Origin: Promethearchaeota archaeon
GTDB taxonomy: Archaea > Asgardarchaeota > Lokiarchaeia > Sigyniarchaeales > SOKP01
NCBI GenBank assembly: GCA_048941265.1
Contig: JBHLNT010000141.1
Span: forward strand, 1 to 10,921
Length of the DNA stretch: 10,921 nt
Reading direction: 5' to 3'
This document shows positions 2,128 to 10,581 of the stretch, one piece after another. The position numbers and the translations under genes were made by a program. Below the pieces are notes generated by a model, which searched no databases, was not told where the DNA came from, and saw nothing but the letters and a program-made list of their open reading frames with translations. Numbering within the stretch: the stretch's first letter is position 1; each line of letters starts with the position of its first letter.

Positions 2128-3102
2128 TTAAATCTTTTTTCCCTTACCAGTTTGCTCCCACTCGTTAAATTTCTCCATTAGATCATCGATTTCACCTTCT
2201 AAAAATGTAAATTCTATAGCCTGAGACTCCTTATCATATTTTGCTGGTATTAAATTATCTTTAATGAATTGCTTCGTGATCCTTTCAACCTGAGATTGGT
2301 TCATTTTCACATCGTCAACTATTTCCTTTAAAAGAATTCGTGGATATTTCTTAGAGAACATCAATAGGGATGTGTGAATCTTCTGGTATGCGTTATATTG
2401 CTTCTCAGATTGTATTAAATCTTTTTTCATTTTGGTAATAACGGCGATGTAGTTTTTAACATCAATAGTTTCTAAAGGCAACGATTTTGCTTGGTTGTTT
2501 AATTCTATAAGTATTTTTCCTGCCCTCTCAAATTCGTTTTGATTCATATAATTTTGAACCTCTTGTAGTTGGGTTTGAAATTGAGGAAACTTTACCTTTA
2601 TTATATTAGGATAAATTATTTTACTGATTCTTCTCTTGTAGTAAATAGAAAGAATAAGATACACAATATTTGGCAAAAAATTAATTATAAAAGCTATAAT
2701 AACCCAATAAAAGAAAATTATCATTAAAACGGATGAGATAATAAGATTAGTAATTATTATTTTCAGAATTTTTTTGTATTTCTTTATTAGTGGTATCCAA
2801 CTGTATTCATCATTATCCTTATATTTCCATATTAAGAAGAGCTTATTATGTCCCCTGTAAAACATTACCATAGACAGTAAATTAAAAATAGGTCCACTTA
2901 TAGAAAAAATGAACATAATTGATAGGGTTAAGGGCACATTTCCAATTAAAAAAGTCCCGAGAGGTGTTTCCCTCAAAAAATAGCCTATAACTATGAGTCC
3001 AGAGGCAATAAATATAGGGATTAATAGTGATAGATAGGAAAAAACTAGAGAATTATTTAAATATGAAATTCCAGAATCTTCAGCTTCATTTATATCACTC
3101 AT
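2128..3102 (-). CDS. Membrane protein (~4 N-terminal TM) with helical region and C-terminal PCI-like winged-helix domain; paralog of 3147..4088
   Basis: 324 aa with a hydrophobic N-half. YPRILLKEIVDDVKMNQSQVERITKQFIKDNLIPAKYDKESQAIEF fits the PCI winged-helix pattern (Y..I.L..LA......VE..L..LI....I.AKID......F). Tail is EGEIDDLMEKFNEWEQTGKGKKI. Confidence 0.8.
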   Translation of the reverse strand: MSDINEAEDSGISYLNNSLVFSYLSLLIPIFIASGLIVIGYFLRETPLGTFLIGNVPLTLSIMFIFSISGPIFNLLSMVMFYRGHNKLFLIWKYKDNDEYSWIPLIKKYKKILKIIITNLIISSVLMIIFFYWVIIAFIINFLPNIVYLILSIYYKRRISKIIYPNIIKVKFPQFQTQLQEVQNYMNQNEFERAGKILIELNNQAKSLPLETIDVKNYIAVITKMKKDLIQSEKQYNAYQKIHTSLLMFSKKYPRILLKEIVDDVKMNQSQVERITKQFIKDNLIPAKYDKESQAIEFTFLEGEIDDLMEKFNEWEQTGKGKKI

Positions 3103-3146: not shown

Positions 3147-4088
3147 TTAAATCTTTTTTCCCTCCTCGGTTAGCTCCCATTCTTCGTATCTTTTCATTAA
3201 GTCATCTATTTCCCCTTCTAAGAAAGTAAATTCTATAGCTTTAGAATCCTCGTCATATTTTGCTGGTATTAAGTTGTCCTTAATGAACTGTTTCGTAATT
3301 CTTTCTACTTTATTTTGGCTTATTTTCACGTTATCAACTAATTCTTTCAAAGTAATTCGAGGATATTTCTTAGAAAACATCAATAACGACGTATGAATTT
3401 TCTGGCGTTCAGCAAATTGCTCTTGAGAGTGAATAATGTTTTTTTCTAATTGGTCGAAATCAATGATATTTTTTTTATCACTGAAAGTTTTTAAATGCAA
3501 CAATTTAGCTTGACTTTTTATTTCTGAAATTAAGTTTATTGCCTTATTAAATTCGTTTTGGTTAATAAGATCTTCAATTTCTTGAATTTGGGATTTAAAA
3601 TGGGGGAATTCGCTATTAAATTTGCTTGAATATCTCAATATGACATCAATTTTCCTTTTCCAATAAAATAAAAGAATAATATATAAAATATTTAAGAAAA
3701 AGCTAATAAAGAAGAAGATAAAAACATAAAATGATAAAACGAGGTTTAGAATAATAAATATTAAAATCTTTTTATATTTTTTAATAAATAATATCCGTTT
3801 AAGTTCAGGGTTTTCAAGATCTTTCCATGATAATAATACCTTTTGATATACACTATAATACTTTTTGATTGAGATTATTACTAATACTGGTCCAAATATA
3901 AAGAAAAAAAGAGAAAAAGTTAATGACAGTACAATAGGCTCCCCCCAAAATAATAAATAGACATATGAGTATATATAAAGTATGATTATAGGGATAATTA
4001 GTGCAAAAGCTTCAGAGATTATTGAATAATTCAAACTAGAAATGCCATTTTTTTCTTTAGGATTTTTATTATTCATTATCAATACCAT
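3147..4088 (-). CDS. Membrane protein (~4 N-terminal TM) with helical region and C-terminal PCI-like winged-helix domain; paralog of 2128..3102
   Basis: 313 aa, with a possible start at the ATG at 4076. Same architecture as 2128..3102. The last 85 aa are 68/85 identical to it by manual count. Confidence 0.8.
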   Translation of the reverse strand: MVLIMNNKNPKEKNGISSLNYSIISEAFALIIPIIILYIYSYVYLLFWGEPIVLSLTFSLFFFIFGPVLVIISIKKYYSVYQKVLLSWKDLENPELKRILFIKKYKKILIFIILNLVLSFYVFIFFFISFFLNILYIILLFYWKRKIDVILRYSSKFNSEFPHFKSQIQEIEDLINQNEFNKAINLISEIKSQAKLLHLKTFSDKKNIIDFDQLEKNIIHSQEQFAERQKIHTSLLMFSKKYPRITLKELVDNVKISQNKVERITKQFIKDNLIPAKYDEDSKAIEFTFLEGEIDDLMKRYEEWELTEEGKKI

Positions 4089-4130: not shown

Positions 4131-4943
4131 TTAACATTCTTTTTTGTCAAATTCATTGATTATAATATTTTGCTGTGCGGCCCACCACACCCAGACCTGT
4201 CGAATAAAAAAATGAACGATACCAAGATTTTCTTTCCATGCATGCGTGTTCGACATGTGCTCGTGACATATCATCACGTATTTCTTATTATCCTGTTCCC
4301 AGATATTTTTTAAAAATATTTTCCCGCAATAATCAATAATATTTGATTCTGCAAAACATCGTGGACAGACTTTGGGGTATTCTGAGGTTAGGAGGACTTT
4401 TATATCAAAATTAATTTCCGGTCGTTCTGGAACAAGTAAATTTCCATTCCAGATTAAATAATTATAGCGGGGATTTTTCTCAGGAAATAATTTAAACCAC
4501 GGCTTATTCTGGGTCATTTTTAGGTAGTTAATATACTTGAGGATCTTTTCGATTTCGAGTTTGACGCGATCTTTCCAAGCGGGATGTTTTGGTCCAATAC
4601 CTTCCCATTTCTCATGAAATTCTTGAATTAATTCGTCAAGAATAGATCGTTGCCAACTAATATCGGTCGATTTTGAGCCTACAATACCTCGATCTATAAT
4701 ATCAAAAGTATTCCCGAATTTATTAACTAATTCATTAATTGAGCTTAGTAAATCTGTAGTTGTGAGAACTTGCCCTCCAATATTGGCTATACATACATTT
4801 TGTGAAGAAATTCCAAATTTTTTTGAAATTTCGGGAATTATATCCATCAATTTTAAATTAGGGGCAACAGGAAAGGGTATTTGCTTTTTTTCAGAGCCAA
4901 ATTTATTCACGAAATAAATCGTATTTAATTCTGGTTGCGACAT
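4131..4943 (-). CDS. ufc1: Fusion of a UFM1-like ubiquitin-fold modifier (aa 1-89) and a UFC1-like E2 conjugating enzyme (aa ~100-270)
   Basis: The N-domain ends KFGNTFDIIDRGIVGS (human UFM1 as recalled: KHGSELRIIPRDRVGSC). The C-domain has GPKHPAWKDRVKLEIEKILKYI...PWFKL, FDIKVLLTSEYPKVCP, MICHEH (Cys226, nt 4266-4268) and LGIVHFFIRQVWVWWAAQ. The UFC1 equivalents are [23 protein letters not shown]...DWFRL, FDIEFDIPITYPTTAP, KICLTDH and FGLAHLMALGLGPWLAVE. Confidence 0.88.
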   Translation of the reverse strand: MSQPELNTIYFVNKFGSEKKQIPFPVAPNLKLMDIIPEISKKFGISSQNVCIANIGGQVLTTTDLLSSINELVNKFGNTFDIIDRGIVGSKSTDISWQRSILDELIQEFHEKWEGIGPKHPAWKDRVKLEIEKILKYINYLKMTQNKPWFKLFPEKNPRYNYLIWNGNLLVPERPEINFDIKVLLTSEYPKVCPRCFAESNIIDYCGKIFLKNIWEQDNKKYVMICHEHMSNTHAWKENLGIVHFFIRQVWVWWAAQQNIIINEFDKKEC

Positions 4944-4973
4944 TCTATATCCTTAACCTCGGGCTTTTCTCTT

Positions 4974-4990
4974 TATTTATAAATTTCTTT
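4974..4990 (-). promoter_or_regulatory. Candidate internal BRE/TATA promoter for the UFM1-UFC1 gene
   Basis: The minus strand reads AAAGAAA-TTTATAAATA, with the TATA box about 33 nt upstream of the ATG at 4943. A purine-rich GAGGTTAAGGA lies between them. Confidence 0.45.
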
Positions 4991-5013
4991 AATACTTTTT
5001 ATTTTTTTTATTT

Positions 5014-6255
5014 TTATAATTCTAATTTTTTTTTATCAGAATTTATACTTTTTTCAAGATTTATAATAATATTTATTAGTTCATTCTGCCATGCGAAATT
5101 TTTGGAGACTTTTTTTATATCATTAAGAAATGTCATAATATGACTTTTTACTTTCTTAGACAATTCTAAATTTGAAAATGAATTAAAAGAAACTAAGATC
5201 TTATTAAAAAACTCAAAATTCTTCTGAGAAAATCCAAAATTGTTTAATTCTGGTTTGTTAAAGCATAAAATTTTTAGATAAAATCCGAAAAAATTGAGAT
5301 GATATTCAATAGGAGCAATTATTTTTCGATTTTTGTCATCAATAACGGAATTAAACACTTTTTGAAGCAAATTATTGAAAACAATTTCTGATTTGATTAG
5401 ATTATTTAGATCTTTGAACGTTTTGGTTTCAATACTACTATAAATGGGTATTTTTAAACTCAAATCTAAAGAAAAAGGTATATAATCATTGTTTATAAAA
5501 TCATCTTTTGAAATTGGCTTTTCATCATCATTAATTATCAACTGCTCGATACTGTTAGTTTTCAGGATTGAAGGGATTTTAAGTTTGATCGGCTCTGCTG
5601 TTAATTGATTTACTAAATATTTTTTTATTAATTTATCTTCTGATACTTTTAAATTCTTTAAGAATAGTTCCATGTTGCTCCAAGCATTTTCTAAATAGTT
5701 ACTCATGGCATTAACAACTCTAACTTTCAAGTTGTTAGCATCATTTATATTATCTAAGATAGTTTTTTTTATTTTGATTAAAAATTTCTCACTTAGGCTA
5801 ATTAATAAAAATTTGGGGATTTCAGGGGAAATATTTTTTGCCTTAATTTCTTTGATTTGACTTTTGTTTCCCATTTGATAAAAATGAGTTTGCTTTCCAT
5901 TTGTTACTATTGATACACAGTTAGGGAATTGATTACTCAAGCTAATGAGAGTTGCATCATCAGTATGACTATGAAAAACTTCACTTGAGAAGGGATGTGA
6001 ATGATAGATACCAATAGGACCTATACCTTGCGGCATTACAGAGCTAATCTCATGGAACTCCTTAACATCTGGAATTGCACTTATCGTGGATTGTTGTTCA
6101 AATCGTTTACATTCAAGTATTGCTAACACATTAGGGATATCATCCTTTTGAAATCCTAACAGCCATCCATATATCTCATGTTCACTTGATAGAGCTTGAT
6201 TCTTGATTACGTTGAGCAGTATTTCAGGAATATAAAATAATTTTATAGTTACCAC
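5014..6255 (-). CDS. JAMM/MPN+ (JAB, Mov34/PAD-1) metalloprotease with a long C-terminal extension; putative Ubl-processing/deconjugating enzyme
   Basis: 413 aa with a GTG start. EIYGWLLG supplies the catalytic E27, and GIYHSHPFSSEVFHSHTD supplies H85, H87, S96 and D99, a complete JAMM motif. I cannot assign the remaining ~280 aa. Confidence 0.88.
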   Translation of the reverse strand: MVTIKLFYIPEILLNVIKNQALSSEHEIYGWLLGFQKDDIPNVLAILECKRFEQQSTISAIPDVKEFHEISSVMPQGIGPIGIYHSHPFSSEVFHSHTDDATLISLSNQFPNCVSIVTNGKQTHFYQMGNKSQIKEIKAKNISPEIPKFLLISLSEKFLIKIKKTILDNINDANNLKVRVVNAMSNYLENAWSNMELFLKNLKVSEDKLIKKYLVNQLTAEPIKLKIPSILKTNSIEQLIINDDEKPISKDDFINNDYIPFSLDLSLKIPIYSSIETKTFKDLNNLIKSEIVFNNLLQKVFNSVIDDKNRKIIAPIEYHLNFFGFYLKILCFNKPELNNFGFSQKNFEFFNKILVSFNSFSNLELSKKVKSHIMTFLNDIKKVSKNFAWQNELINIIINLEKSINSDKKKLEL

Positions 6256-6258
6256 CTA

Positions 6259-7095
6259 TTATTCTTTAATTTTATCAATGAGATCATTTAGATCTCCTTG
6301 AGTTATTTTAGGTTTTATTATCTGTTTTTTCAATTTAGATTTTTGGCTACAAATAGGACAATTTTCATCTCGTTTGGTTTCATATTCTAAGAATTTACCT
6401 GTTATCATATTATACATAGTATAATCGATCATTCGACCAAATTTTAGAAGATACTTTAGCATTTCTTGGATTTGAATGCTTGCTAAAATTGCCATAGTTG
6501 AAGGTAAAGAGGCTACACAGGGCTCACCTCTCTCATCGGGAATATCTATTGCTATGCTACTTAAACATTTGGCACAAGCAGTTTTAAATGGGATCACAGG
6601 ATGGACATATCCGGATAAGCCGCTTCTTGAAGCGCCAGCATCAATATAAGGGATATTTAACAGTATACATTTAGCATTAAGATATTCCCTCGCGGGAATG
6701 TTATCTAAACCATTTAGGATAACATCCATATTATTTATTTCGGTTTCGAATTTAGGTTCAAACTTCATATCCATAATATCGCAATCAAAATATTGGATTT
6801 CAACATCGGGATTAATTTCTTTTAGTATTTTAGTAGCAACGATGACTTTTGGCTGCCCTACATGTTCCTCTTTAAACATATGCCGGTTCAAATTAACAGT
6901 CTCAACAATATCAAAATCAAAAAGAGTTAGTTTTCCTACTCCACATCTTACAGCCATTTCAGCAGAAACACAACCAAGCCCTCCAACACCGATTATTCCA
7001 ACATGATATTTTTTAAGATCATCCCAATTAACTTCATAACCGAATTCTTTAATTGCCTTAAGTCTTGTATATCTATCTTGGGTCATAATTACCAT
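6259..7095 (-). CDS. uba5: UBA5-like E1 activating enzyme (ThiF/MoeB/E1 superfamily)
   Basis: 278 aa, with a possible start at the ATG at 7086. General E1 motifs: GVGGLG nucleotide loop, DFDIVETVNLNR, Zn pairs CAKC and CPIC. UBA5-type motifs: YTRLKAIKEFG (UBA5 YSRLMALKRMG), AEMAVRCGVGKL (AEMLTRCGIGKL), catalytic PCVASLPSTM with Cys193 at nt 6517-6519 (VCAASLPTTM), LKYLLKFG (LKFLLNFG), and C-terminal DLNDLIDKIKE (SLEDLMAKMKNM). Confidence 0.9.
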   Translation of the reverse strand: MVIMTQDRYTRLKAIKEFGYEVNWDDLKKYHVGIIGVGGLGCVSAEMAVRCGVGKLTLFDFDIVETVNLNRHMFKEEHVGQPKVIVATKILKEINPDVEIQYFDCDIMDMKFEPKFETEINNMDVILNGLDNIPAREYLNAKCILLNIPYIDAGASRSGLSGYVHPVIPFKTACAKCLSSIAIDIPDERGEPCVASLPSTMAILASIQIQEMLKYLLKFGRMIDYTMYNMITGKFLEYETKRDENCPICSQKSKLKKQIIKPKITQGDLNDLIDKIKE

Positions 7096-7104
7096 AAATA
7101 TAAT

Positions 7105-8187
7105 TTAATATCTTAATGCTTTAGGAATTTTTGAAATTCTACTGCAATAGATGCACTCAACTACTCCATTTACATCTACATTATTTATTGGAAGATTTGC
7201 TCCACACTCAGGACATTGAGCGCGAACTACTTCTACTTTTTGTTCTAAACCTTGCTTTAATTGAGAAATAATGGTATCATATTTTTCTAATAACTCTGAA
7301 ATAATTTTTTCATTTTCTCCTGTAACCCATATTATTAGTGTTCCTGTTTGTCCAGAGGCCATTATTTGAATATCGATTAATTGAATCGAATCTGGACTAT
7401 GACTACTAAGGAAAACTACTGATGCAAGATAATCTTGCTCTACTTCATCGAATATATGTTCTTCAGGTTCCTCTATGGAATCAAATCCTTTAAATACATT
7501 GAGAATTGATTTAAATAACTTCTTGGGGTTAGTCGCCTTAAATTTATATTTTTGTCCTAAATTTGGATAATTTTTCTGTTTGATTTCTCGTATTGATTTA
7601 AGCGTTTTTTGCTTTATTTGAGTTGTTAATATGTTGACGCGTTCCTCTTGGATCATTATTTTATCCCTCTTTATTTCTGAGAGTAACTCATTAGAACTTT
7701 TTTCTAAAAAAATTCGTGTTTTCTCCCCAATAATCACTGGCGGATTAGGAAGGGTTGAATTGATAATTCCTGTAACAACTATAGGTGCTCCACCTTCCCA
7801 TGGAATCATGAAAGAAACTTCTTGACCATAATCTATGAGCTTATTCAATAAAGAGGGTTTAATATTTGAAGTCCATTCTCCTTTAGTAATTATCCGATAT
7901 TCATTTGAAATATTTATATTAACTTCCAAAGCTACGGCAGGATTATATTTTAAAATAAAGACGTCATCGTTTTCTGCAAAATTTCCCAAAATTCTTTTGT
8001 TAATAAAAATTTTTGGCTCGTCACTGTATTCAAATTTCTCAATTTTAGTGATTATTGAATATTTTTTAGCAGGTAGATCTGAAAGTAAAAACACCGTATC
8101 TCCTATTTTAAATTCTGACAAACTTTCTTTTCTTCCTTGAATGACAGAATTTTCCCTTAATTGAGGAATTAATTTGTAAGTCTGCAT
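7105..8187 (-). CDS. CDC48-N/UFD1-like domain protein with coiled coil, alpha/beta domain and C-terminal Zn ribbon; no AAA ATPase
   Basis: 360 aa. Residues 1-162 have FKIGDTVFL, KIFINKRILGNFAENDDVFILK, ALEVNI and IINSTLPNPPVIIGEKTRIFL, which resemble the two subdomains of the CDC48/VAT N-domain. The Zn ribbon is CPECGANL...VECIYC (C325-C348). No Walker A or B motif is visible. Confidence 0.7.
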   Translation of the reverse strand: MQTYKLIPQLRENSVIQGRKESLSEFKIGDTVFLLSDLPAKKYSIITKIEKFEYSDEPKIFINKRILGNFAENDDVFILKYNPAVALEVNINISNEYRIITKGEWTSNIKPSLLNKLIDYGQEVSFMIPWEGGAPIVVTGIINSTLPNPPVIIGEKTRIFLEKSSNELLSEIKRDKIMIQEERVNILTTQIKQKTLKSIREIKQKNYPNLGQKYKFKATNPKKLFKSILNVFKGFDSIEEPEEHIFDEVEQDYLASVVFLSSHSPDSIQLIDIQIMASGQTGTLIIWVTGENEKIISELLEKYDTIISQLKQGLEQKVEVVRAQCPECGANLPINNVDVNGVVECIYCSRISKIPKALRY

Positions 8188-8245: not shown

Positions 8246-9124
8246 TTATTTGTTTATTAGTTTTCCTTCTAATTCTCCTAATTCCTTTTCGGTTTCATTC
8301 ATGAATGTTTCTATTTGAATTTTCTTATTTTCATACTCTTCCTTAGAAATTTTATCATTAAGGAGAAGATCTTGTTGTTCCTTAAGTTTTTTCTTTAATT
8401 CTTCAATTCTTTTTTGTATTTCCTTTTTTTGATTAATTAAATATTCTGTTCTCTCTTTTTCTTCTTTAAATAAACTTGCAACGTCTTCTGGAGGGTTAAT
8501 CCCAATTACATTAAAAGTTTCAAGTTCAAGACCATATCTCAAGAATTCTTCAGTGACTTTAGAGATTAGAAGATTTATCACATGTTCCCGATCTACTAAA
8601 ATGATATTTTTAGCATTATAATTTTTAAAAATATCTCTTAAAGACGTGTGCAATAGACCTATAATCCATTTTCTAAGGTCTTGAAGGGTCCATGTTTTTA
8701 TTCCTGCTACAACATCATTGTAAAAGGTTTTAACATCGTTTATTTTTAATTTTAAATCTCCATACACTCCAATTATGCATCCATCTTGAGTAGGAATACC
8801 CTCCGTACGCGGAATCCCCCAGGGAATGTCTTTAAAAGAAGTATCAATCCACACTATCTCAGTTCCTTTGATTCTCGCCGTTTTATCAAGCTCATAAACC
8901 CCTCCTCCTAACATACTAATTAATTCTCCCTTGTTATAAAAAAGTACTTTCTCGTAATCTTTAACTGCAAAATATTTTTTATTTTTAATGTTATCATCTG
9001 GCTGAGGAAAAGAATACATTAAAGGTGTTGAGAGATCTCCTTTATCTTCTCTTACCCAAGCAACTATTTTTGGATCATAATCTTTAAACTTTTTTCCTTC
9101 AATTTTTTTATACATTTTTATCAC
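8246..9124 (-). CDS. SPFH/band-7 domain protein (soluble YdjI-like type) with coiled coil and SHOCT-like C-terminus
   Basis: 292 aa, probably starting at the ATG at 9115 behind GTGAT. SPFH-type motifs are AVKDYEKVLFYNKGELISMLGGGVY, IPWGIP, GVYGDLKLKINDVKTF and EEFLRYGLELETFNVIGINPPE. LKEQQDLLLNDKISKEEYENKK is SHOCT-like. Confidence 0.82.
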   Translation of the reverse strand: MIKMYKKIEGKKFKDYDPKIVAWVREDKGDLSTPLMYSFPQPDDNIKNKKYFAVKDYEKVLFYNKGELISMLGGGVYELDKTARIKGTEIVWIDTSFKDIPWGIPRTEGIPTQDGCIIGVYGDLKLKINDVKTFYNDVVAGIKTWTLQDLRKWIIGLLHTSLRDIFKNYNAKNIILVDREHVINLLISKVTEEFLRYGLELETFNVIGINPPEDVASLFKEEKERTEYLINQKKEIQKRIEELKKKLKEQQDLLLNDKISKEEYENKKIQIETFMNETEKELGELEGKLINK

Positions 9125-9186: not shown

Positions 9187-10581
9187 TTAACTATTAGTTT
9201 CAGAAACAATATACCAGCGATTACCATGTAAAAATGATTTTGAAAATTTTAGGATGCCTAAATCTGTAAGGTGATCCAAGATTTTAAGTATTTTTTCACT
9301 GCTCCAACTAGTTTTTCCAATCATATCTGTTAAAGTGAAATTCTGAAATTTTAATGCATGAGAGATAAGTTCCTGTTCATCATCCTTAATGTCATACGGT
9401 TTTAATTGAACGATTTTTAAATAATGATCTTCATCTCCTTGAATAACTTTAATTCCCGAGATATAACCTTTATCTGCGAGTGAATTTATTACTCTCTCTA
9501 ATTGGTCAATATTTATATTTAGATTTGGCTTTTCGTCTAATATAAACTGATATAATGCAAATAATGGTATATTTTCTTTAATTTCATTAAAACCCTTATT
9601 AAATTGTGTTTTACCAATTGTTAGCTTATTGTGAAGTTCTAATACTGCTTCTTCAATAGTTTTGATTTGTTCTTCTTCTGGCAATGAAATATCTATTATA
9701 TCATCTAGGATATCTGAATTGTACTTATTTAAAGATAGTAGCTTTAACTTCTCCTTTGAAAGAATATGAAAATCGATATTTAAAGATTCTCTATTATTAA
9801 TTAGACTCTTTACTATTCTAATTTCTTCTCTTAAATCTTTTGCCACCGAAAATGCATTAGAACTTCCTCCATTTTCCAAAAGTTTTGACAATCTATTACT
9901 AAGATCCTCTATCCTTTTTAATTGATTTACAATCAAATAATTAAAAAATAATATTTCTTTAAACAAATCATTTTCTTCTGATTTTGATAGCTTTTTCTCC
10001 TTTTCATCCTTTTTTTTCAATTTATAGCTGGTGATGGGATTTTTCGGTAAATTTGAGATTTTTTGTCTGAAAAATTTTAGTCTTCTTATGATAATACTCA
10101 TTAAATCTTCAAAAGCAGGATTATCAAGGTTCAATACTGTCCCAAGCATTTTACTTAGTTCAATTTGGAGGGAATTTAAGGTAGATTCAATCAAGTCTTG
10201 TTTTACTTTACATTGTTCTTTTATATTTTCAATCTTTTCAGGTATTATGATTCCCTGTAGTAATTCTTCTTCTTTACTTAAAAATTTAATTTCCCGATTT
10301 AGTACTTCAGCTTCTTTTAAAACTCTTTTTCCAAACTTTGTAATTTTCCATTTTGGGAGAATATTATTTTTTTCCACTACTCTCTCTACTTGATTAAATC
10401 GTTCTAATTGCAAGAGAATATTTTTTACAACTCTCATTGAAAGTCCAGTATTTTCGCTTATGTTTCGAATACTCTCAGCTTTTTTCGAAATCTCATTTAA
10501 ATAAAGTAATGTTTTTTCAATCCCTTGTAGGCTTATTGGTAATTCTCTTATTGGATTGGGTTTTTCATTTAAATCTGGCAT
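9187..10581 (-). CDS. N-terminal winged-helix + coiled-coil + C-terminal tandem winged helix resembling ESCRT-II Vps22/Vps36 (EAP30 domain)
   Basis: 464 aa. The N-terminal wHTH is SIRNISENTGLSMRVVKNILLQLERFNQVER...WKITKFGKRVL. Residues ~338-460 (IPLFALY...DQLERVINSL...VQLKPYDIKDDEQELISHA...FTLTDMIGKTSWSSEKILKILDHLTDLGIL...RWY) parallel Vps22 (ITLEEL...DDLIRAIKKL...IQSVPAELNMDHTVVLQLA...VTVSEIKASLKWETERARQVLEHLLKEGLA...HYW). Confidence 0.72.
   Translation of the reverse strand: MPDLNEKPNPIRELPISLQGIEKTLLYLNEISKKAESIRNISENTGLSMRVVKNILLQLERFNQVERVVEKNNILPKWKITKFGKRVLKEAEVLNREIKFLSKEEELLQGIIIPEKIENIKEQCKVKQDLIESTLNSLQIELSKMLGTVLNLDNPAFEDLMSIIIRRLKFFRQKISNLPKNPITSYKLKKKDEKEKKLSKSEENDLFKEILFFNYLIVNQLKRIEDLSNRLSKLLENGGSSNAFSVAKDLREEIRIVKSLINNRESLNIDFHILSKEKLKLLSLNKYNSDILDDIIDISLPEEEQIKTIEEAVLELHNKLTIGKTQFNKGFNEIKENIPLFALYQFILDEKPNLNINIDQLERVINSLADKGYISGIKVIQGDEDHYLKIVQLKPYDIKDDEQELISHALKFQNFTLTDMIGKTSWSSEKILKILDHLTDLGILKFSKSFLHGNRWYIVSETNS

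Follow-up and report, generated by a model that had tools for sequence, protein, structure and literature searches.

A UFM1-like modifier fused to a UFC1-type E2 in a conserved Asgard archaeal operon

A ubiquitin-like protein (Ubl) of UFM1 type and a conjugating enzyme (E2) of UFC1 type are encoded as a single protein in a contig of a Promethearchaeota archaeon (JBHLNT010000141.1), of which the full 10,921-nt stretch is called the window here. The fused gene, located at 4131..4943 (minus strand, like every window gene and domain placed below), spells out 270 aa plus a stop, and according to its predicted structure the product begins as a beta-grasp domain of UFM1 type and continues, without any added linker, as a UFC1-type E2. 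The gene belongs to an operon that is conserved across Asgard archaea and comprises a CDC48-N-like protein, a UBA5-like activating enzyme (E1), a JAMM protease, a UFM1-like Ubl and a UFC1-like E2. Tag, E1 and E2 are all UFM1-pathway-like, while the protease belongs to the JAMM type. Only a minority of the related operons have the fusion; most make the Ubl already mature, ending in Val-Gly (VG) and a stop codon. The reading that we favour, and consider moderately probable, is that the fused protein would be a precursor from which the JAMM protease releases the Ubl by cutting at Gly89 (G89).

The original prediction, made from the letters of the DNA alone, described one uninterrupted 270-aa open reading frame (ORF) with a Ubl at residues 1-89 ending RGIVG, followed by S90 and a UFC1-like E2, and this can be read directly from the sequence. 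It also expected a beta-grasp domain and an E2 fold, and the AlphaFold2 (AF2) model of the 270-aa protein, built on a 76-row alignment with a mean predicted local distance difference test (pLDDT) of 94.2 and a predicted template modelling score (pTM) of 0.90, agrees with it, the best matches being UFM1 and UFC1. The Ubl domain (4677..4943), which ends ..IIDRGIVG and is homologous to free Ubls of ~88 aa, has UFM1 chains as its best beta-grasp matches. In the VIA comparison of residues 1-91, ranks 29-36 were all UFM1 (Z 11.7-13.1, root mean square deviation 1.2-3.2 over 76-86 residues), followed by the TBK1 Ubl as the next differently named beta-grasp (Z 10.1); similarly, the best Foldseek beta-grasp was UFM1 (5hkh_A, TMt 0.85; 5ia7_B, TMt 0.82). 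At the sequence level, no match to the Ubl part was found in PDB or Pfam.

The E2 domain (residues 96-270; 4134..4658) was matched by the family profile, by VIA and, below the cut-off, by Pfam UFC1. Ranks 1-28 for residues ~94-270 in VIA were all UFC1 (Z 13.8-17.2) and the next E2 was UBE2S (Z 10.1), every E2 among the 42 Foldseek matches at E <= 0.001 was UFC1, and all 26 PDB matches of the family profile at E < 1e-5 were UFC1 chains. The sole Pfam match of the window protein was UFC1 (residues 116-194), at 22.5 bits and hence under the curated cut-off of 25, which is exceeded by the relatives P0089 (28.6 bits), P0091 (27.1) and P0113 (38.7). Judged on the model, the E2 is a divergent UFC1 member by structure and a borderline one by the curated sequence model. 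Its best candidate for the thioester cysteine is probably Cys226 (4266..4268), which lies in the near-invariant motif MICH[ED]H and is at least 90% conserved in alignment A1 and present in most rows of A3. Comparison with the related locus L001 (94% identical) indicated purifying selection on both domains, the ratio of nonsynonymous to synonymous substitution (dN/dS) being 0.06 in the Ubl and 0.03 in the E2.

Fused and split forms of the Ubl/E2 pair

A word-based database search retrieved 43 relatives. Sixteen of them are fused (266-275 aa, 52-81% identity), and most of the others are E2s of ~180 aa that start just past the VG position. The search with the Ubl part also gave 43 proteins, 34 ending exactly at VG, 6 with tails of 1-4 aa and 3 with longer extensions, one of the latter being a truncated fused form. 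Free Ubl and E2 are adjacent genes by their NCBI locus tags. An exhaustive search of representatives returned only 65 clusters, with fused forms down to 36% identity (P0089, P0090, P0095), and in a search for longer proteins containing the Ubl the 9 matches were only the known fused forms and P0042.

The same division is seen in the genome contigs, from which 32 loci labelled Promethearchaeota (Loki), Hermod-, Heimdall-, Sigyn- and Odinarchaeota were collected, both parts being readable in 25. Orthologous fused ORFs occur in six of these (L001-L005 and L021) and the remaining 19 are split, which does not fit the original view of the fusion as the design of the system. The split form (Ubl ~88 aa, E2 ~181 aa) is orthologous to the two parts of the window protein, with identities up to 89% for the Ubl and 84% for the E2, and has the same neighbours as in the window (CDC48-N-like protein, E1 and JAMM). 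Its Ubl ends VG-stop in 15 of the 19 loci, and in 8 of the 19 the TGA of the Ubl overlaps the E2 start as NTGA (ATGA, GTGA or TTGA). The four other split loci have a tail past VG, namely GN in the cultured Lokiarchaeum ossiferum (L015), L, WYE and ART. In the window, an in-frame Gly-Ser junction (4674..4679, with the G89 codon at 4677-4679 and the S90 codon at 4674-4676) stands in place of the stop/start overlap, such that the C terminus of the Ubl is blocked until it is cut.

The junction reads ...IIDRGIVG(89)-S(90)KSTDISWQRS... and stand-alone E2s begin M-S/T with a conserved Trp at position 8, at the same spacing as S90...W97 in the window. Therefore, the stretch that had been taken for a short linker between the domains is indeed present, yet it is the E2's own N terminus and nothing has been added. 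It follows that a cut after G89 would recreate both native proteins. For the same reason, the parallel drawn at first between a "VG/S maturation site" and the VG-SC end of eukaryotic pro-UFM1 has to be abandoned as a coincidence, since S90 is residue 2 of the E2 and Ser follows the Gly in only 9 of the 21 fused forms that keep it.

How often the two genes were joined depends on the tree used. On the best E2-only tree, a poorly resolved one made with a quick method from 63 rows, 12 changes between fused and split states are counted, of which the starred branches force only 2. The four-gene tree (16 loci, 947 columns) gives 4 changes on the best tree and 3-4 on the bootstrap trees, and the approximately unbiased (AU) test did not reject monophyly of the six Loki-type fused loci (p 0.18).

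Two observations on individual loci should be added. In Heimdallarchaeum endolithica (L017:8252-8300) the Ubl ends VG-L-stop and E2 homology goes on in the same frame past two stops; at the place of the ATG of L024, no canonical start codon is present. In addition, two contigs binned as 'Patescibacteria group bacterium' (L023, L032) carry E2 fragments 81-88% identical to the window E2 and were probably mis-binned.

The fusion is real and inherited rather than an assembly slip, because 16 database proteins, six genome loci and contigs of two sequencing samples carry it or keep its net frame. One small indel at an NTGA overlap would suffice to turn a split pair into a single ORF by a sequencing or assembly frameshift, and the contig that matches best at the DNA level, from run X1, covers 4620-4820 without a difference but may come from the source sample itself and is hence not independent. 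Nevertheless, an artefact of this kind is hardly credible: the fused proteins and loci come from different assemblies and their linkers have diverged in frame, dN/dS is low in both domains, and the net frame is kept in a contig of a second sample from the same study (X2), which extends over 4455-4976 and differs by 34 substitutions and by two 1-nt indels, at 4664 and 4668, that compensate each other. Thus, the check over the junction for a missed stop, as first proposed, came out clean in X1 and less so in X2, where net length is unchanged while the few bases between the indels could in principle contain a stop. Of two further runs, X3 had no depth at the junction and X4 gave no mapped reads with about 1% of the run read, a fraction too small to count either way; no RNA run was listed as carrying the sequence.

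Probable release of the fused Ubl

The terminal motif, whose conservation across orthologs was part of the original prediction, is VG in 20 of 23 fused forms and AG in one, the Gly being lost in two (P0090, P0095); it is invariant in the Ubl alignment A2 (44 rows). Once mature, the modifier would thus end in Val-Gly. When the window's genome, which is 91% complete, was searched with the whole protein and with the Ubl profile (E <= 1; 32 candidates scored, 1 match), the fused copy alone matched. It is likewise the sole Ubl in four of the five other fused-type genomes, while in the fifth a 615-aa ORF contains an additional Ubl. Adenylation by an E1 requires that the C-terminal carboxylate be free. 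The retention of a UBA5-like E1 where the only Ubl found is fused therefore argues that the Ubl is released, as had been proposed from the start. Moreover, the tails past VG in four split lineages and six database Ubls suggest that a VG-specific processing activity belongs to the system.

The obvious candidate for this activity is the JAMM enzyme, whose gene is adjacent, no Peptidase_C78 match having been found. The JAMM/MPN+ metalloprotease (5014..6255, 413 aa) has an N-terminal catalytic domain (Pfam Prok-JAB 26.2 bits, JAB 23.8 bits) with a complete E...HxH...S..D motif, and E27, H85, S86, H87, S96 and D99 are shared by all 16 aligned orthologs; the expectation of an intact JAMM protease next door was therefore correct. 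E1 and JAMM matches stand beside the Ubl/E2 in 24 of the 25 loci, including all six fused ones (in L021 the E1 match is partial, at the contig end), and the 25th locus has no upstream DNA. Peptidase_C78, the UFSP-type protease, was absent from the 91%-complete genome, a weak negative given that the control genomes were silent too. A predicted complex of JAMM residues 1-135 (alignment A4) with the Ubl (A2) scored 0.00 against a mark of 0.32, which counts neither way.

We favour the precursor reading because the split relatives make exactly the two proposed cleavage products, and because VG is kept, the Ubl is under purifying selection and the JAMM motif is invariant. In the mechanism that we infer, with its cut, protease, catalytic cysteine and targets, a small frame-joining indel at an NTGA overlap would have given rise to the fused form. 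The JAMM metalloprotease would cut the peptide bond past Gly89, freeing a mature Ubl ending VG and an E2 starting at Ser90, which is the native E2 minus its initiator Met. The E1 would then adenylate the free Gly and hand the Ubl to the E2 cysteine, probably Cys226, from which it would be conjugated to its targets. The same protease may also trim the short tails of other lineages and remove conjugates.

Several points weigh against this interpretation. Cleavage is inferred and none was observed. HMMER aligns the UFC1 'GKIC' stretch with residues 207-210 (GKIF) rather than with Cys226, the alignment stopping at residue 211, and a PDB sequence search with the C-terminal 79 aa of the E2, aimed at placing Cys226 relative to UFC1, gave 0 matches at E <= 10. 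With the genome 91% complete, the remainder might hold a second Ubl gene. Finally, two divergent fused proteins, P0090 and P0095, lack the terminal Gly, and in P0095 the Cys of the MICH motif is gone as well; a fused Ubl can thus persist without being conjugatable, and both are probably non-conjugating derivatives.

These two proteins are equally part of the case for a fusion that is never cut, in which the Ubl would be a permanent cis domain that, for example, docks the E2 to the E1 or to the CDC48-N-like protein, or regulates the active site, tagging being absent or performed by another modifier. The high inter-domain confidence of the AF2 model could likewise mean that the two domains dock stably within the molecule instead of forming a loose precursor, and Ubls of the family do occur inside larger proteins without a VG end (P0121, ..FTGG then a long tail). 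We nonetheless find permanent fusion rather unlikely. It would leave VG kept in 20 of the 23 fused forms, E1 matches retained, and a single Ubl in five of the six fused-type genomes, and in the closest relatives this Ubl is a separate protein. Furthermore, what joins the domains is the native N terminus of the E2, and it is here, just past VG at residues 91-100, that the least confident internal 10-residue block of the model is found (pLDDT 81).

If the fusion is cut past Gly89, another protease might do so, leaving to the neighbouring JAMM only the removal of conjugates. In fact, 15 of the 19 split loci need no trimming of their Ubl and yet keep the JAMM gene, so that the conserved JAMM role is probably deconjugation. 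However, no other protease gene is conserved in the operon among the 25 loci compared, no UFSP-type match was found in the genome, and JAMM enzymes of other archaeal systems are described as cutting past the terminal Gly of Ubls (PMC6043591, in the part available), which together make a separate protease improbable.

The Gly-Ser site also brings to mind self-cleavage at G89/S90 by an N-to-O acyl shift of the intein, Hedgehog or pyruvoyl type, whereby the E2 could be loaded without an E1. In the related protein P0123 the Ubl's VVG runs straight into the Cys of a Hint/Vint domain (Pfam Vint, E 3.2e-6), suggesting that some member of the family does employ autoprocessing through a thioester at this Gly. 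For the window protein we regard it as very improbable and rejected it, since the nucleophile past the scissile Gly is not conserved: among the 21 fused forms with the Gly intact, it is followed by S in 9, T in 2 (11 with S or T altogether) and A, L, D, G, V, N or M in the other 10. Furthermore, no Hint-like fold was found in the window protein by AF2 and Foldseek, and an E1 match is retained.

Operon partners and known systems

The E1 (6259..7095, 278 aa; Pfam ThiF, 179 bits) had UBA5 as all of its best five PDB sequence matches (E 2.6e-45, 158 bits), with MoeB at 98.6 bits, and its Cys-bearing ACxxC and C-x-A-S-L-P-x-T-M stretches align with UBA5. A PDB search with its last 40 aa, for a UFC1-binding tail like that of UBA5, gave only chance zinc-finger matches. 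The first gene of the operon (7105..8187, 360 aa), syntenic in most loci, encodes a CDC48/p97-N-like domain, a coiled coil, an alpha/beta domain and a C-terminal zinc ribbon. In its AF2 model (pLDDT 85), residues 1 to ~175 match p97 N domains (Foldseek E 4.6e-9, TMt 0.69), and the Atlas lead was likewise a CDC48/p97 N domain; past it come a long helix, the alpha/beta domain, the CxxC...CxxC ribbon and a conserved end ..IPKxLRY. Domains of the p97 N type bind UBX-type beta-grasp domains.

Apart from the split form of the operon, one of the closest known systems is the eukaryotic UFM1 pathway (pro-UFM1, UFSP1/2, UBA5, UFC1, UFL1-DDRGK1), which provides the best match of the window Ubl, E1 and E2 each and whose tag also ends Val-Gly. 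UFM1 is made in eukaryotes as a precursor that needs trimming (PMC11354881, in the part available). Yet the protease there is a UFSP cysteine protease and here a JAMM metalloenzyme, and the extension of the precursor is two residues in eukaryotes and a whole E2 here. A UFL1/DDRGK-like ORF is present in the window's genome but on another contig, unlinked to the operon: a 790-aa open frame (G000:C92:1882-2634, plus strand; L035, L037, L038) that matches E3_UFM1_ligase (61.8 bits summed) and DDRGK (37.4 and 30.7 bits).

Ubiquitin precursors, that is polyubiquitin and the fusions of ubiquitin to ribosomal proteins (PMC11354881, same part), resemble the window protein in having the modifier N-terminal and a peptide bond past its terminal Gly, which deubiquitinases cut. 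The partner here is instead the modifier's own E2, and the fusion is lineage-specific and not universal. Among archaea, the operon of Caldiarchaeum subterraneum has the same kinds of component, with Ubl, E1, E2 and the JAMM enzyme CsRpn11, which processes the Ubl precursor (PMC6043591, PMC5654768, as far as available); processing of a ubiquitin precursor by an archaeal Rpn11-type JAMM enzyme is thus on record (PMC6043591, as above). The Caldiarchaeum system is of ubiquitin/UBC/RING type with a short precursor tail, whereas that of the window is of UFM1/UFC1/UBA5 type with the E2 as tail. Fusions are also known from prokaryotic Ubl pathways, such as MoaD-MoaE, ThiS-ThiG, Ubl-ThiF and E2-E1-JAB triple modules (PMC1779556, in its accessible text); in this same text no Ubl joined to the N terminus of an E2 was found, 'fused to the E2' and 'fused to E2' occurring 0 times. 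It does describe E2-like proteins of prokaryotes in which the Cys is closely followed by a conserved His, an arrangement which the C-H-x-H motif of the window E2 resembles.

As for earlier records, a 2023 survey saw UFM1, UFC1 and UFSP2 only in eukaryotes (PMC10183829, in the part available). A 2026 paper reported Ufm1 homologues in nine Asgard clades, some of the matches being partial or having several matching regions, and its main text, in the portion available, never mentions UFC1 or UBA5 (PMC12962969). The supplementary table of that paper lists Loki__BC1__01875 with UFM1 at residues 4-90 and UFC1 at 101-265, labelled as ESP and 'Liu et al, 2021'. BC1 is the isolate of the fused locus L004, whose protein is 75% identical to that of the window. 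Hence the UFM1+UFC1 domain pair is already on record at table level, the fusion being undiscussed there. In our literature search, neither this operon nor a UFC1-like E2 from archaea nor a Ubl fused to an E2 was discussed in any main text found, although 'Liu et al, 2021' or the supplements of 10.1101/2020.10.19.343400 may list the E2 family.

Neighbouring genes, related architectures and significance

The window has a G+C content of ~25-34% in 1-kb windows, and all of its ORFs of at least 261 aa (n=10) lie on the minus strand. Upstream of the operon stand an SPFH/Band-7 protein (8246..9124; Pfam Band_7_1 and Band_7), which many loci have close to the operon, on either side, and a 464-aa protein with several winged-helix domains (9187..10581), syntenic in many Loki-type loci. 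For the latter there were only weak winged helix-turn-helix matches in Pfam, an Atlas lead to EAP30/Vps36-like tandem winged helices that was below Atlas's bar, and 0 matches in a PDB sequence search. Directly downstream of the fused gene are two paralogous membrane proteins with a C-terminal PCI/winged-helix domain (3147-4088 and 2128-3102; Pfam PCI, 33.5 and 29.2 bits), and PCI-like matches also lie near the operon in L007, L008 and L011. The PDB sequence search with the first of the two gave only weak PCI and ZorA matches (E >= 0.05), and DDRGK was absent among the Pfam matches of both at E <= 0.1.

The fused gene is preceded by a 70-nt A+T-rich spacer (4944-5013) with a TATA-like tttataaata at 4974-4983, which may point to a promoter of its own, and by GAGGT at 4956-4960, 13 nt ahead of its ATG. 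One X1 contig departs from the window upstream of 4978. In several split-type loci (L006:4346-4560, L007:6736-6950) the JAMM gene has no ATG, GTG or TTG from the upstream stop to the conserved N terminus and may, by its sequence, use an unusual start codon.

Members of the family are also found in other architectures. P0123 (874 aa) consists of a CDC48-N-like domain, homologous to the window protein at 7105-8187 (31% identity, E 4e-12), a UFM1-like Ubl ending VVG, the Cys of the Hint/Vint domain and leucine-rich repeats (LRRs). In this protein Hint chemistry would form a thioester at the terminal Gly of the Ubl without an E1. Conflict-type modules are joined to other members, as in TIR-Ubl (ending VG-GSKI), SIR2-TPR-E2 and E2-LRR proteins (P0042, P0088, P0092), and judging by these combinations some such paralogues may serve in defence-like systems. 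Perhaps, and this we put forward only as a tentative extension, the JAMM enzyme is an obligate and possibly regulated maturase, tag and E2 being held inactive as one zymogen in fused lineages until a single cut arms the pathway, and the Asgard UFM1-type Ubl tolerates any C-terminal extension, be it a short tail, its own E2 or the Hint domain of P0123, where a Ubl thioester would form independently of an E1. The original proposal that the cut acts as an on-switch, for a system latent up to that point, is unsupported.

UFMylation is a pathway described from eukaryotes. By joining the two in one gene, the fusion provides compact genetic evidence for this Ubl and this E2 acting together, and it shows how easily overlapping, translationally coupled genes become a polyprotein. 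In addition, the fused protein is a simple and ready-made assay substrate with which, given the JAMM enzyme, one could see whether a metalloprotease takes the part of the eukaryotic UFSP cysteine proteases in archaea. If cut, the fusion would yield tag and E2 in equal amounts for reconstitution of the cascade.

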